64,000 nt of DNA, taken from assembly GCF_056746865.1 (NCBI RefSeq), contig NZ_JBWKMP010000003.1. The stretch is one strand, 5' to 3'. This document shows, in pieces, positions 4,240 to 9,410 of this stretch. The position numbers and the translations under genes are program-made. Position 1 is the stretch's first letter. Every line of letters starts with the position of its first letter. Source of the stretch: a plasmid. The notes beneath the pieces are model-generated. The model saw only the letters and a list, made by a program, of their open reading frames with translations, was not told where the DNA came from and did no database searches.

Positions 4240-4271
4240 TAACTTTAAATAATTGGCATTATTTAAAGTTA
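4240..4271. other. rox recombination site (Dre target)
   Basis: TAACTTTAAATAAT-TGGC-ATTATTTAAAGTTA: perfect 14-bp inverted arms around a 4-bp asymmetric spacer; its reverse complement matches the rox site as I recall it; 152 bp upstream of dre. Confidence 0.85.
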
Positions 4272-4423
4272 GGCTATAATCTCCAGTAAACAGGCAGTAT
4301 TGACAAGGATGAAAAATCATGCCTCGAATCAAAGGCTTGAATTTTGAAAATTAACTTATAACTACCCTGTCAGTTTTCTATTTTTCACGTAGCGTTATCT
4401 GTATATAGAGGTTTAATAGTTTC

Positions 4424-5452
4424 ATGGGTGAACTAGTTATCTCCGGCGGTTCTGGTGGTTTTCTGCGCGATATTGGCACCGAATACCAGGAAGCTGCAAA
4501 AAACTTTATGCAGTTCATGAACGACCAGGGAGCTTATGCTCCAAATACGCTTCGAGATCTCCGTCTGGTGTTTCATTCCTGGGCGCGGTGGTGTAATTCG
4601 CGCCAGCGCCCCTGGTTCCCGATTACGCCGGAAATGGCCCGCGAGTATCTTCTCCAGTTGCATGAGGCCGATCTGGCCTCGACCACCATTGATAAGCACT
4701 ATGCCATGCTTAACATGCTGCTTTCGCAATGTGGCCTCCCGCCGCTGTCGGACGATAAAAGTGTGTCTCTGGCCATGCGGCGCATCCGGCGCGAAGCGGC
4801 AACGGAAAAAGGCGAGCGAACAGGCCAGGCTATACCGTTGCGGTGGGATGATCTGAAATTGCTCGACGTGTTGCTGTCCCGTTCCGAGCGGCTGGTGGAC
4901 CTGCGCAATCGGGCGTTTCTCTTCGTGGCATACAATACCCTGATGCGTATGTCAGAAATCTCGCGCATCCGCGTCGGAGATCTGGACCAAACAGGTGACA
5001 CTGTAACGCTGCATATTTCACACACGAAGACCATCACGACCGCCGCCGGACTTGATAAGGTGCTTTCTCGTTACACTACCGCCGTACTGAACGACTGGCT
5101 GGAGGTGTCCGGACTTCGAGAACATCCGGACGCGGTGCTATTCCCGCCAATACACCGCAGTAATAAGGCCAGAATCACGACAACGCCCCTTACTGCACCT
5201 GCAATGGAGAAAATATTCAGCGATGCCTGGGGGTTGCTGAACAAACGAGATGCCACGCCGAACAAAGGAAGATACCGGACGTGGACAGGCCATAGTGCGC
5301 GTGTTGGTGCGGCAATTGATATGGCTGAGAAACAGGTGTCAATGGTCGAGATCATGCAGGAAGGTACATGGAAAAAGCCCGAAACACTTATGCGATATTT
5401 GCGCCGTAGCGGGGCATCCGTTGGTGCAAATAGTCGCCTGATGGACTCATAA
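4424..5452 (+). CDS. dre: Cre-family tyrosine recombinase Dre
   Basis: 342 aa, colinear with Cre from the N-terminus; RHR and catalytic-Tyr region present (TGHSARVGAA..LMRYLR); paired with the rox site. Confidence 0.85.
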   Translation: MGELVISGGSGGFLRDIGTEYQEAAKNFMQFMNDQGAYAPNTLRDLRLVFHSWARWCNSRQRPWFPITPEMAREYLLQLHEADLASTTIDKHYAMLNMLLSQCGLPPLSDDKSVSLAMRRIRREAATEKGERTGQAIPLRWDDLKLLDVLLSRSERLVDLRNRAFLFVAYNTLMRMSEISRIRVGDLDQTGDTVTLHISHTKTITTAAGLDKVLSRYTTAVLNDWLEVSGLREHPDAVLFPPIHRSNKARITTTPLTAPAMEKIFSDAWGLLNKRDATPNKGRYRTWTGHSARVGAAIDMAEKQVSMVEIMQEGTWKKPETLMRYLRRSGASVGANSRLMDS

Positions 5453-5869: not shown

Positions 5870-6354
5870 AAACTTACTACCCATCCCTGAACTGTTATCC
5901 AACCACTAATCCTGAGCTGTCAGGGAAACTTCTGTCCCTCCTGGCTGATAGTCCTGATGAATGGCATAAGCCTGGTGATATCAACACACAGTTCCCTGAG
6001 TACGGGTGTATCCGCACCCGAAATGAGCTGAAGAACCTCATTGCTCACGGTTTTGTCCGTCACCGTAGCGGGAAAGGCTATCAGTTGGCTATCCCACAAG
6101 GAGAGGCAAGAGAACTCTTTGGCTATCGAGAAAGCCAGACGCAAGCGCGGGTGATCGCAGAAATTATCCGTAATGGCAGCGTCTATGCCCGCAAATTCTG
6201 GCTGTCTGGCGGTGGTGATGCATCACAGTTCTTGCGTGCTGTGCGATCGCTGGAGGAACAAGGTGTTATCGAGAATACCTGCGTCTCCGTTCCGACCGCT
6301 CCGCATATCAAACGCCGGATTTATACATTTACCCGGAGAGCTAAAAAGCAATGA
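5866..6354 (+). CDS. hypothetical protein
   Basis: ATG with AAGGGGG Shine-Dalgarno; stop overlaps the dut ATG (ATGA). Confidence 0.5.
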   Translation: MKTYYPSLNCYPTTNPELSGKLLSLLADSPDEWHKPGDINTQFPEYGCIRTRNELKNLIAHGFVRHRSGKGYQLAIPQGEARELFGYRESQTQARVIAEIIRNGSVYARKFWLSGGGDASQFLRAVRSLEEQGVIENTCVSVPTAPHIKRRIYTFTRRAKKQ

Positions 6355-6845
6355 TTAACGTGAAAGTGAAACGCCTTCATCCGGCGGCAAAACTCCCCGT
6401 TTACGCCACCGCCGGATCGGCGGCGATGGATTTTGTTGCTGTTGAAATAACGCCGGGTATCGATAGCAACGGCGCTATTTCCTCAAGCTGGTGGGTGCAT
6501 ACCGGCCTCGCTATGGCGATCCCTCCTGGCTGGTGTCTGAAACTTTATCCTCGTTCCGGATTGGGCTGCAAAAAGCATACGCGCCTGGCTAACTGCGTAG
6601 GAATTATCGACTCCGATTATCGCGGTGAAATCAAAGCAAAACTGATTACAGATCCCGGTGGTGAAGGCGTTTGCCTCAAGCCAGGAATGGCGGTCATGCA
6701 AGGCATTTTTGAGCGTGTTGAACCGGTATCGCTGGTAGAAGTTGATGAACTCGATGAAACAGAGCGAGGTGCTGGTGGCTTTGGTAGCACATCGGAAGAC
6801 CGCATTGAAATCAAGCGTACACCGCTTCAGTACGCAAAGTTTTAA
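6351..6845 (+). CDS. dut: dUTP diphosphatase
   Basis: Trimeric dUTPase motifs: AGSAAMDF, YPRSGLG, GIIDSDYRGE, RGAGGFGSTS. Confidence 0.85.
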   Translation: MINVKVKRLHPAAKLPVYATAGSAAMDFVAVEITPGIDSNGAISSSWWVHTGLAMAIPPGWCLKLYPRSGLGCKKHTRLANCVGIIDSDYRGEIKAKLITDPGGEGVCLKPGMAVMQGIFERVEPVSLVEVDELDETERGAGGFGSTSEDRIEIKRTPLQYAKF

Positions 6846-6859
6846 GTAGAGGAAAGGCT

Positions 6860-7510
6860 ATGAATAACATGCCAACGAAAGAGCTTTTTAAGTTCCTTCC
6901 CAAATACAAAGCTCACAAAAACGTTAGTGCATCGAAAATTAAAAATGTTGTTATTTTCGGAGTAACTGATGCCCCACTTTGGGGCTGCATCGAACTCGTT
7001 GAACCAAAAGGGGCAACAGTTTGTGTTGACGCAATGTTTTTACAAAAACACCGACCAAAAACTGGCGGGTATCTGATCGTTTATGAAAACGGTTATCTGT
7101 TCTATGCCCCGGAGAAACCATTTGAGGAATGCTATGGCCTGGTTAACGACGCCTCCAAAAATGGAACCACGGTCATCATTACGGATGACAACGGCGTGAT
7201 GATTAATCTTACTGGGAGCGTAACTATTTCTGCTGGTGGCATCACCACCCAGCAAGAAGAAATCGACCTTGAAGCAGCCGACTTCTCTGATGCGCTAATG
7301 TGGTTGAAGGAAGGCAAGAAAGTTGCCCGACGCGAGTGGAAAGGCGAAAAGCAATTCTGCTGGTTAGTTCTCGCTGGAAGCGTCAATTTACACGGCATTC
7401 ACGTTCCTTATGGTGACCATTTTGTATTGAAAGATGCACAAAATATGGACAGCGTTTGGTTGCCGTCTGTGGATGATTTACTGGCCTGTGACTGGTTTGT
7501 TGTGGAGTGA
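6860..7510 (+). CDS. fusion protein: unknown N-terminal domain plus C-terminal DUF2829 (Tad2-like) domain
   Basis: C-terminal ~75 aa (FSDALMWLKEGKKVARREWKG...WLPSVDDLLACDWFVVE) matches the DUF2829 pattern as recalled; GAGGAAAGG Shine-Dalgarno. Confidence 0.55.
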   Translation: MNNMPTKELFKFLPKYKAHKNVSASKIKNVVIFGVTDAPLWGCIELVEPKGATVCVDAMFLQKHRPKTGGYLIVYENGYLFYAPEKPFEECYGLVNDASKNGTTVIITDDNGVMINLTGSVTISAGGITTQQEEIDLEAADFSDALMWLKEGKKVARREWKGEKQFCWLVLAGSVNLHGIHVPYGDHFVLKDAQNMDSVWLPSVDDLLACDWFVVE

Positions 7511-7516
7511 TTTAAC

Positions 7517-8323
7517 GTGGAAAATACCAAGAACATTCAATATCGCTTGCGTAACGGCCTGCTGGTGGATGTAAACGATGATATGTCCCTGCCCTTTGCC
7601 ACCATTGAGCGAACCATCCTTACATACCTGGGCTTAGACGAAGAGTTAGATAGTGAGAATGGCATTGCTATCTGGCGTGACGGAAAAACGGGAGTCAGAC
7701 GTTTTATTACGGCAAGAGGCATTCAGTGCACACAGGAAGAATTGTTTGAACTGGCGCAGTCTTATGGATGCATCGCGTTAGATCCCCTGTATGACCCAGC
7801 CATAGCACAACAACTCATTCGAGAGCTGTCGCTTTCGGTCACGCCAATAATCTTCCGCCAGGGAACCTTAACCGGCACATGGCGTGTAGAACGCATCTCT
7901 AAATATCAGCCATATAATATCCATTTGAACGGCACTATTACTGGTGTGGATCAACCAGTAGCAGGTGAAAACAAAGACCTGGAACTTGCAGTAATGATGG
8001 CAGCTTGTCGCGTGCTTGGCCTGGGCAAGCAGATGTTTATCCATTTCCCAAACGGCGCGGAAGGCGAAGTAGAGCTGATTTCCTGCGACTTTTCCTTAAC
8101 CTGGATGCTTGATGAATTCCTGGACAAAACAGTATTCCGTGCTGAAGAACTGGATATGTATGTCACCTCAAGTATTCCTAATGACGTGAAAGTTGAGGCC
8201 ATCGCTACAGCCAGGGCGAAATGCCGTGCGGCGATTGCAGAACAGGCCAAAGAAGAACAGTCCGATGAAGTCGCGGCAGATGTGGAGGCAGAGGTAGCGG
8301 AGGATGCTGATGCTGACGCCTAA
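7517..8323 (+). CDS. hypothetical protein with acidic C-terminal tail
   Basis: GTG start with GGAG Shine-Dalgarno; 268 aa; ends in an Asp/Glu/Ala-rich tail. Confidence 0.45.
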   Translation: MENTKNIQYRLRNGLLVDVNDDMSLPFATIERTILTYLGLDEELDSENGIAIWRDGKTGVRRFITARGIQCTQEELFELAQSYGCIALDPLYDPAIAQQLIRELSLSVTPIIFRQGTLTGTWRVERISKYQPYNIHLNGTITGVDQPVAGENKDLELAVMMAACRVLGLGKQMFIHFPNGAEGEVELISCDFSLTWMLDEFLDKTVFRAEELDMYVTSSIPNDVKVEAIATARAKCRAAIAEQAKEEQSDEVAADVEAEVAEDADADA

Positions 8324-9410
8324 AAACATCACCGAATTACCAGAGTGGAGAGAGCTGGTAAGCAAATATAGCCATGACTGGGCATTAGCAGCAGAAGAGT
8401 TGATGGGTGTTAAGTTAACCCACCAGCAAAAGCTAATTGTTGAGGCGATTCAACAAAAAGGTTCAGCAGTCAGCGTCACCACTCCTGAAGGGATAGGCCA
8501 AAAGACGGTTATCGCTATAATTAGTATTCTTTATACAATCCTGATGCCTGAGTCTAAAACGGTTATTGTTTCCCCAAAGTTCTATAATTGTCGCAGGCAA
8601 GTTATCCAATACATAAGTACGTATTGGGATAGAGTCAGTAACAGAATCCCATTGCTGGGAGAATATTTTAAAGTCGACGGAAACGGCATCAATCATCGTT
8701 ACCGGGAATATTGGGGCTGCGAAATTAAGCCATATCACCGAAATTATGAGGAAGGTTTCGGTGGATATTATGCTGAACATCTTTTAATCATTGTTACGGA
8801 GGCGGCTCTTGCTGGCGATCGGCTATTCAGCATGTTAAGAGCATCGTTAGTAAGTGACGATTCACGTATACTTTTAATGTCCGCTCCTTCAGAGGAGGAG
8901 CATGGACACTTTTACGATTCCCATCATGGTCGTGCAAAATCAGAAGAAAATCCATGTGGTATTTATACAGCCATCAAGCTGAACGCAGAAGATACCCCCA
9001 TTATTTCACAAGGTTATCTTGATAACATTGCAGAAATATATGGTGGTAAAAACAGCGATTACTACCGTCGCATGATTCTTGGTGAGTTTCCAGGTATTAG
9101 GGAGGCTGTTCTTGAATCAGATATGCCGAAAACAATGCGCTTTTCGATGCCTGATGGTAGTGAATGGATAATGCCATTACGAGTGATAGCCCGGCATCAT
9201 GCACAGCACCACGCCAAAAAACATGGCGTTACAACATTGGAGTGGTTGAAATCGCACACCATTCCACTCTTCACTGCAGATCACAATGCTATCGTTGAGT
9301 GGGCAAAAACAATTCCGTGGGAGAATGTCGCTGAATACGCCCACATGCTAAAACCGCCGAAAGACAGGCAAGAAATTAGCTGGCTGACAGCAGAAAAAAT
9401 CATTGAGTGA
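8304..9410 (+). CDS. terminase-large-subunit ATPase-domain paralog with degenerate Walker motifs
   Basis: Clear similarity to the 1460-2968 ATPase domain (THQQKLIVEAIQ.. vs SHQQQQIIQSVQ..; FYDSHHGRAKSEENP vs FYESHHSRAKAEGNP), but Walker A reads TTPEGIGQKT and Walker B IVTEAA; no nuclease-domain counterpart. Confidence 0.6.
   Translation: MLMLTPKNITELPEWRELVSKYSHDWALAAEELMGVKLTHQQKLIVEAIQQKGSAVSVTTPEGIGQKTVIAIISILYTILMPESKTVIVSPKFYNCRRQVIQYISTYWDRVSNRIPLLGEYFKVDGNGINHRYREYWGCEIKPYHRNYEEGFGGYYAEHLLIIVTEAALAGDRLFSMLRASLVSDDSRILLMSAPSEEEHGHFYDSHHGRAKSEENPCGIYTAIKLNAEDTPIISQGYLDNIAEIYGGKNSDYYRRMILGEFPGIREAVLESDMPKTMRFSMPDGSEWIMPLRVIARHHAQHHAKKHGVTTLEWLKSHTIPLFTADHNAIVEWAKTIPWENVAEYAHMLKPPKDRQEISWLTAEKIIE

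Follow-up and report, generated by a model that had tools for sequence, protein, structure and literature searches.

The window analysed here, a 64,000-nucleotide (nt) stretch of plasmid contig NZ_JBWKMP010000003.1 (assembly GCF_056746865.1), is part of a D6-like phage-plasmid of Escherichia coli. At positions 6860-7510 on the plus strand it holds a complete open reading frame (ORF) of 216 amino acids (aa) with an ATG start, hereafter the Tad2 gene, whose product combines a Dec-like OB domain, a spike-like segment and a Tad2 domain. We propose that this gene encodes a cytoplasmic anti-defence sponge of the phage-plasmid, directed at a Thoeris signal, and we give this reading a probability of roughly 60%. 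It rests on the homology of the domains and their predicted folds, on the conserved pocket residues, and on where the gene lies and how it is distributed; from these we infer ligand binding, the identity of the ligand, the oligomeric state, the time of expression and the role of the OB domain and spike. What our analysis adds to previous knowledge concerns the OB module, which belongs to a large family that has no Pfam model and is recurrently fused to validated sponges.

The C-terminal domain is Tad2-like

The Pfam family PF11195, "Tad2-like" (DUF2829), matches residues 141-215 over positions 2-73 of its 73-position model (E 6.1e-18). In a phmmer search of Protein Data Bank (PDB) sequences the protein matched ModTad2 (9eib, E 7.5e-11), 8v3e (E 1e-10) and SPO1 Tad2 (8sme, E 5e-6), with weaker matches to SptTad2 and HgmTad2/AcrIIA7. 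Our AlphaFold2 model of the 216-aa protein, a monomer built on 142 sequences, has a mean pLDDT (predicted local distance difference test) score of 88 overall and of 91-96 in the Tad2 domain, and the predicted fold of the C-terminal domain also matches solved Tad2 structures, with the helix at the N-terminus and the sheet of five antiparallel strands that typify Tad2. Residues 141-215 are a Tad2-like domain, far beyond chance; the domain spans residues 138-216 (7271-7507, plus strand). An earlier note on this DNA, made from the letters alone, had placed a DUF2829 domain in the C-terminal ~75 aa of an ORF adjoining dut and had staked this on a DUF2829/Tad2 profile search. The significant full-model match and the solved Tad2 chains bear it out, and the ORF indeed begins 14 nt after the dUTPase gene.

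Among the characterised Tad2 proteins compared (SPO1 Tad2, ModTad2 and HgmTad2/AcrIIA7), which are likewise encoded by phage elements, ModTad2 is the closest solved relative; the two domains share 39-42% identity, and our protein keeps the Trp-Trp-Ser-Asp residues of the pocket. The differences lie in size, our protein having 216 aa and two extra N-terminal modules where the others are single domains of ~90 aa, in an EWKG motif in place of GWNG, and in the beta2-beta3 insertion, which is the shortest of the comparison. The Tad2 part also matches PHROG 643, "transcriptional regulator" (E 1.7e-6), a legacy annotation that we rejected because the Tad2 evidence is far stronger; the AcrIIA7, or anti-CRISPR, reading of DUF2829 was rejected as well.

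The ligand pocket

In SPO1 Tad2, the pocket for gcADPR is made by W25, N26, W73, S76, T78 and D79 from two protomers. In HgmTad2, W21/N22 and S90/T92/D93 mutants lose binding, and W21A/N22A abolishes it; N26 of SPO1 Tad2 and N22 of HgmTad2 contact the diphosphate of the ligand. We aligned our domain with ten other Tad2 sequences (SPO1 Tad2, ModTad2 and eight relatives), and the pocket positions map to W160, K161, W200, S203, D205 and D206. Both tryptophans, the Pro-Ser pair and the aspartate are invariant across the alignment. Four of the five key pocket residues (W160, W200, S203 and D206) are therefore kept, while the asparagine that contacts the diphosphate is a lysine, K161. From this alignment, our reading is that an ADPR-type pocket would be retained, possibly with a changed specificity.

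The beta2-beta3 insertion builds a second pocket, for cyclic dinucleotides in HgmTad2 or for cyclic UMP (cUMP) in ModTad2. It has ~24 residues in SPO1 Tad2 and ~41 in HgmTad2, and only ~14 in our protein; because it is so short, a second cyclic-nucleotide pocket is unlikely, and the cyclic-dinucleotide/cUMP pocket is probably absent. CBASS activity is likewise unlikely for this allele, judging from its sequence, since the insertion that forms the cyclic-dinucleotide pocket of HgmTad2 is cut to this length. As a first guess by analogy, and a weak one, the target may be His-ADPR and type II Thoeris, since the nearest relative of known structure, ModTad2, binds His-ADPR, and type II Thoeris is also blocked by a Tad2 from a prophage of Enterobacterales (Tatumella).

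A Dec-like module precedes the Tad2 domain

Pfam finds no match in the ~140 aa ahead of the Tad2 domain. To this extent the earlier note was right to call the N-terminal part uncharacterised; its fold, however, did not prove to be new. A profile of the OB family matches one solved protein, the decoration protein Dec of phage L (6e3c, E 9.4e-6), and Foldseek on the predicted fold also returned 6e3c (E 1.1e-3, probability 1.0, 29% identity). Residues 12-98 (6893-7153, plus strand) are, by profile and by predicted structure, a Dec-type OB-fold, homologous to the capsid-binding domain of Dec.

The likeness to Dec would extend beyond the OB-fold. With the single sequence as query, phmmer aligns the protein with Dec through KPEVGGYLFRSQYGELLYMSKTAFEANY and then into the Dec spike (INLTGSVTISAG versus ITLTGAVTGSAS; Dec residues ~90-119, chain numbering 93-122), so that in both proteins an N-terminal OB-fold is followed by a beta-strand segment, ours aligning with the start of the spike. 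The spike of Dec is a C-terminal three-stranded beta-helix, which makes the trimer. In our protein, the beta-strand repeat segment NGTTVIITDDNGVMINLTGSVTISAGGITTQ (residues 99-137; 7154-7270, plus strand) is modelled in the monomer as four short strands with pLDDT ~72, and it resembles the segment that forms the three-stranded spike of Dec. Among relatives, this middle segment occurs as two main beta-type alleles (two or three alleles in the alignment), and in other lineages unrelated, apparently helical linkers replace it; the junction IDLEAADFSDALMWLKEGK, at the start of the Tad2 domain, is almost invariant. Because the middle segment is swapped and the junction hardly varies, the protein can be seen as a cassette of three swappable modules, with the spike-like segment as a swappable linker.

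Proposed function of the protein

In our proposal, the C-terminal Tad2 domain would self-assemble, and pockets lined by W160, W200, S203 and D206 would form at the protomer interfaces. These pockets would sequester the ADPR-derived signals of Thoeris TIR proteins, namely 3'cADPR/gcADPR, His-ADPR or N7-cADPR, and the Thoeris effector would consequently never be switched on. The OB domain and the spike-like segment would form an added module, acting as an oligomerisation scaffold or providing a second binding function, and not as a capsid anchor. The position of the gene supports this reading: it stands outside the morphogenesis genes, in a dre-orf-orf-dut-Tad2-isaA cluster. Fusions at the N-terminus of Tad2 can also be functional sponges, as Acb4-Tad2 of Pasteurella phage Pm86 blocks both Thoeris and CBASS. 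Like this protein, Tad2-Sequestin and Acb4-Sequestin (Pseudomonas phage Ab09), ours joins small phage modules in one polypeptide. In those natural multi-sponge fusions, however, both partners are validated and their symmetry is matched (tetramer or dimer), whereas the partner here is an OB module that is only a candidate sponge, with a possibly trimeric spike.

Several points weigh against a Thoeris sponge. In the GWNG motif, the asparagine that contacts the diphosphate is a lysine in our protein and the glycine before the first tryptophan a glutamate, giving EWKG, unlike in all ten other aligned Tad2 sequences; these substitutions could alter or abolish binding. Tad2 works as a homotetramer with its pockets at the protomer interfaces, and since the Dec spike is trimeric, a mismatch of symmetry is possible: a spike that trimerises could keep the canonical Tad2 tetramer from forming or lead to larger assemblies. 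Given its full Dec-like layout of OB domain and spike, the protein may also have a virion-associated role. As to timing, co-transcription of the gene cluster and its time of expression are inferred. Finally, Tad2 proteins of this type are missing from the only broad Tad2 screen, in which Hadary et al. (2025) removed those with a Dec-like domain ("PDB 6E3C") or with PF21825 before the functional tests.

A trimer-type scaffold is met again in a natural variant, P0062, a 241-aa dUTPase-Tad2 fusion with 15 member sequences on contigs of up to 88.6 kb, in which dUTPase is joined to the last spike residues and the Tad2 domain. dUTPases of this class are trimers. Because P0062 joins such a dUTPase to Tad2, the arrangement of a trimer-type scaffold before Tad2 recurs. 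Trimer-type scaffolds and tetrameric Tad2 pockets sit oddly together; the outcome may be mismatched symmetry, a larger assembly or simply a flexible tether.

The OB module and its sponge partners

Searched against 1.84 billion cluster representatives, residues 1-138 matched 1,738 proteins (clusters at 50% identity, E <= 1e-3), and nearly all of these matches cover residues ~12-98. A profile of 45 OB domains found 3,367 clusters at 90% identity. Most of the 120 best listed clusters are 85-100 aa long and have no Pfam family on record. A Pfam scan of 142 family members found no family covering the OB module, with only weak P68HR and Tudor noise. The module has ~85 aa and carries a polar signature, which our protein keeps: Y-x-C/S-H-K ... 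K-H-x-P-x-x-G-G-Y-x-V-x-Y-x-D-G-Y-x-S-x-S-P-x-x-F-E-x-G-Y. As its elements C/S-H-K, K-H-x-P, GGY, Y-x-D-G-Y, S-x-S-P and F-E-x-G-Y are kept in the family and largely lost in Dec, the signature points to a conserved function of the OB module other than the capsid binding of Dec.

To look at its partners, we took the 149 best representatives, chosen on OB similarity alone, and ran local searches on them with seeds representing known sponge domains, counting two proteins with two sponge partners under both. No recognised partner was found in 125 representatives, and three have tandem OB copies with no other partner. About 20 of the 149 are fused to at least one sponge domain: Tad2 in 10, Sequestin (PF21825) in five, Acb4 (PF13876) in five, and Tad1 and a RyR-type domain in one each. 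The Pfam scan of OB family members gave the same partners, other recognisable ones being rare singletons, and two of them, Tad1 (8kbb, E 1.8e-13) and the RyR domain (E 1.7e-10), were confirmed against the PDB. All five partners, that is Tad1, Tad2, Acb4, Sequestin and the RyR-related Thoeris inhibitor, are experimentally validated sponges. Metagenomic fusions of the OB module to Tad1, RyR-type, Acb4 or Sequestin domains include P0218, P0176, P0182, P0233, P0242 and P0101, some with three modules per chain (OB-Sequestin-Acb4 and OB-OB-Acb4). Relatives of the 216-aa protein also carry a C-terminal Sequestin domain, for example P0067. Separately, the OB module of P0130 matches an internal stretch of PHROG 37613, annotated as a MazG-like pyrophosphatase (E 7.8e-6), which suggests a further fusion, to a nucleotide-handling enzyme.

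The contexts of other family members are also informative. We inspected three stand-alone OB genes on long contigs. They lie among small ORFs, with DnaB helicase, DNA methylase and RNA ligase genes nearby and, on the third contig, only a weak integrase-like match; no head module was found around the three. A full-length relative in Klebsiella phage SopranoGao adjoins transcriptional regulators, among small genes and away from the annotated structural genes. We consider that the main role of the OB family is probably in the infected cell, in association with sponges, and that capsid decoration is probably a derived use of the fold. More broadly, the OB module may define a large family of phage anti-defence proteins that has gone unrecognised, its members serving as a new kind of immune-signal sponge or as dedicated partners of sponges, with Dec as a derived member recruited to the capsid; in our protein the module may then bring a second specificity, or higher-order assemblies through a trimeric spike and a tetramerising Tad2. 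We hold this idea only tentatively.

A more specific form of it refines the sponge reading and is compatible with it: the OB domain would be an undescribed signal-binding sponge, and the protein would mop up two kinds of signal. Sequestin was itself discovered through its fusion to Tad2 and Acb4, and the same logic applies to an OB module that turns up beside Tad2, Sequestin, Acb4, Tad1 and a RyR-like Tad, as well as in tandem, among representatives selected by OB similarity. The ~90-aa stand-alone form of most members, the early or replication genes around the three that we inspected and the non-Dec signature fit as well. The only characterised OB member, however, is a capsid binder, the D6 phage lost the OB domain and kept the gene, and fusion to sponges could equally reflect a helper role in solubility, localisation or oligomerisation. 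We regard a second sponge in the OB domain as doubtful.

Virion decoration and degeneration as alternatives

Since Dec binds P22-like capsids, our protein could instead sit as a trimer on the exterior of the D6-like capsid, attached by its OB legs and displaying three Tad2-like heads for adhesion or stabilisation. Some database records do label relatives as "capsid decoration protein" (Dolphis gp96), although these labels look like transfers from similarity to 6E3C. A stand-alone OB homologue of Ralstonia phage GP4 (L002, 4986-5261) lies between the portal and major capsid genes, beside a CsrA-like "carbon storage regulator". We followed this up as a possible cement protein and dropped it: in the cryo-electron microscopy map of the GP4 capsid only the major capsid protein gp2 and the Ig-like cement protein gp1 are seen, and the OB homologue is a different gene from gp1 and is not in the map.

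In layout, Dec has 134 aa and ends with its spike, whereas our protein carries a Tad2 domain at the tip. Other observations also make decoration unlikely. The dec gene is inside the head-assembly cluster of phage L, whereas the Tad2 gene is flanked by dut and isaA within the dre cluster, and the three inspected stand-alone members are among replication or early genes. Of the five capsid-contact residues tested in Dec (K30, Y31, Y49, Y71 and E73), none is kept by our mapping, in which they correspond to V31, I32, C55, N77 and Y79; this mismatch should not be given much weight, as P22 and L have a different capsid protein from D6. The D6 protein has no OB legs, and it is hard to see what purpose a pocket for an intracellular second messenger would serve on the outside. 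For comparison, the virion of P1 shows no decoration protein, P1's own carriage of the Tad2 gene being outside the comparison.

Very unlikely, finally, is a degenerate or repurposed Tad2 that does not bind a Thoeris signal and has another target or is decaying. In its favour are the minimal insertion and the Asn-to-Lys and Gly-to-Glu changes, the two changes being unique to this allele and lying in the motif where the double mutant of HgmTad2 loses binding; truncated, IS1-disrupted and deleted variants also mark the locus as a recombination mosaic. Against it, contact with phosphates is still open to a lysine, the remaining pocket residues are conserved, as is the fold as a whole, and the gene is maintained, since the exact protein forms a 105-sequence cluster and close alleles are widespread.

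Distribution and variation of the locus

The 5.1 kb around the Tad2 gene are 99.3% identical to NZ_CP104667.1, a non-mobilisable plasmid of 91.7 kb; 70% of this query aligns with phage D6, at ~82% identity. The P1/D6 landmarks pacA/pacB, dre, phd/doc and humD are present in the window. Of 5,426 complete E. coli genomes, 209 (about 4%) carry a relative of the gene, and 208 of the 215 matching places are on plasmids. The exact protein (cluster P0001) has 105 members, and ~90 relatives are found in Escherichia, Salmonella and Shigella.

These relatives vary chiefly in the Tad2 insertion, which has 14, 25 or 33 residues, and in the spike allele. DNA identity to most E. coli relatives ends at nucleotide 511 of the gene, the start of the Tad2 insertion, and the RCS47 copy is disrupted by IS1. 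Such variation, mosaic and quick to turn over, is what one would expect of a gene in an arms race. In phage D6, orf114 (L006, 2594-3034) has an in-frame deletion of the OB domain (residues 21-99); it still encodes residues 1-20, the spike segment and a Tad2 domain in which the insertion is longer and the GWNG motif canonical. That this allele lost its OB domain in frame and kept spike and Tad2 indicates that the Tad2 part is the retained core.

The dUTPase-Tad2 fusion P0062 can be related to a 9-nt Chi-containing repeat, GCTGGTGGC, which is found at 6771-6779 in dut and at 7232-7240 in the spike-coding segment and encodes Ala-Gly-Gly in frame in both. Because the junction of P0062 falls exactly at the repeat, its origin is consistent with a 461-nt deletion between the two copies. 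The second copy contains the Chi site GCTGGTGG at 7232-7239 (plus strand). In all, there are 42 copies of Chi in the 64 kb (for example at 6487, 6771, 7232 and 7561) versus 1.9 expected from shuffles, a strong enrichment; Chi enrichment is known for P1. In a further E. coli variant, the 306-aa P0024, a PF03406 tail-fibre repeat region precedes a truncated OB domain, the spike and Tad2. It has five member sequences and is seen on one 10-kb contig, and it may be a recombinant or an assembly artefact.

Gene neighbourhood

The Tad2 protein matches PHROG 872 end to end (E 9.4e-47), and its gene is preceded, 2-11 nt before the ATG, by a Shine-Dalgarno-like sequence, AGAGGAAAGG (6848-6857, plus strand). 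Upstream is dut (6351-6845, plus strand), called a dUTPase by PHROG 135 (E 5.6e-61) and by the Prokaryotic Genome Annotation Pipeline (PGAP). Downstream is a gene for a 268-aa IsaA-like protein (7517-8323, plus strand) with 47% identity to IsaA of SJ46. The pair of Tad2 gene and isaA is kept in P1-like and D6-like elements (SJ46 and D6), and in the P1-like SJ46 it has a different genome position, between ssb and hxr.

The Tad2 gene is the fifth gene of a co-directional cluster comprising dre, which encodes a Cre-like recombinase (4424-5452, plus strand, after the annotation of the D6 record), two small ORFs, dut, the Tad2 gene, the isaA-like gene and a 368-aa ORF, and bounded at its end by the convergent doc gene. 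A gap of 72 nt follows dre; from the first small ORF on, the spacing is -20 to +14 nt. At the head of the cluster, a rox site with an overlapping promoter-like site occupies 4240-4280 (plus strand; rox after the D6 record). The rox part, at 4240-4271 directly upstream of dre, is a perfect rox-type site, TAACTTTAAATAAT-TGGC-ATTATTTAAAGTTA, and the sigma-70-like site TTGGCA-16-TATAAT, which matches at 11 of 12 positions and is the best of the region, starts in the rox spacer. The "early rightward operon" of the earlier note reduces to this tightly packed co-directional cluster, from dre to the 368-aa ORF, behind a promoter-like site at rox. A search with the P1 C1 operator consensus, meant to gauge repression in the lysogen, found no site within three mismatches, which is uninformative because D6 immunity may differ.

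The 368-aa ORF (8304-9410) belongs to PHROG 5902 and shows remote similarity to the terminase large-subunit ATPase (PHROG 2, E 1.6e-10). Both the window and close plasmids have this ORF, whereas phage D6 lacks it and has pdcA/doc directly after isaA. PDB sequence searches gave nothing for the 368-aa ORF or the IsaA-like neighbour, NCBIfam gave nothing meaningful for the Tad2 protein and its four neighbours, and PADLOC models did not match the Tad2 gene, as expected for an anti-defence gene.

Previous knowledge and significance

The Tad2 call is already known, and the OB-Tad2 architecture has been noticed earlier in the literature. PGAP/RefSeq calls the gene product "DUF2829 domain-containing protein", and one relative is listed in UniRef as "Thoeris anti-defense Tad2 family protein". 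A phage-plasmid survey of 2025 (a preprint with AntiDefenseFinder-type screening) gives a frequency of 93% among D6-like and 56% among P1-like elements for "Tad2 AcrIIA7 (anti-Thoeris)", and the fusion itself figures in the exclusion list of Hadary et al. The accessory domain and its fusion to Tad2 are hence not as new as the earlier note had supposed. In the literature, we found no paper that treats the OB module as a partner of sponges.

Phages are known to blunt signalling immunity (Thoeris, CBASS and Pycsar) mainly by means of sponges, among them Tad1, Tad2, Acb2, Acb4 and Sequestin. New sponge families have recently been found through the fusion partners of known sponges. The OB module was invisible to such a search, because the search used Pfam and the module has no Pfam model. 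The Tad2 gene described here, almost always found on a phage-plasmid, is a clean and abundant example of the class that the Tad2 screen discarded. Were it just an everyday Tad2 carrying a passive appendage, there would be nothing unusual in the finding, which is already annotated. At stake beyond this are the sponge activity of a multi-module Tad2 and the effect of a trimer-type scaffold on a tetrameric sponge, which bear on how P1/D6-type plasmid prophages establish themselves and persist in Thoeris-carrying clinical Enterobacteriaceae, and a possible anti-defence role for a family of thousands of ~90-aa phage proteins. The gene would be of value chiefly because it leads to the Dec-like OB module, itself associated with five families of sponges.
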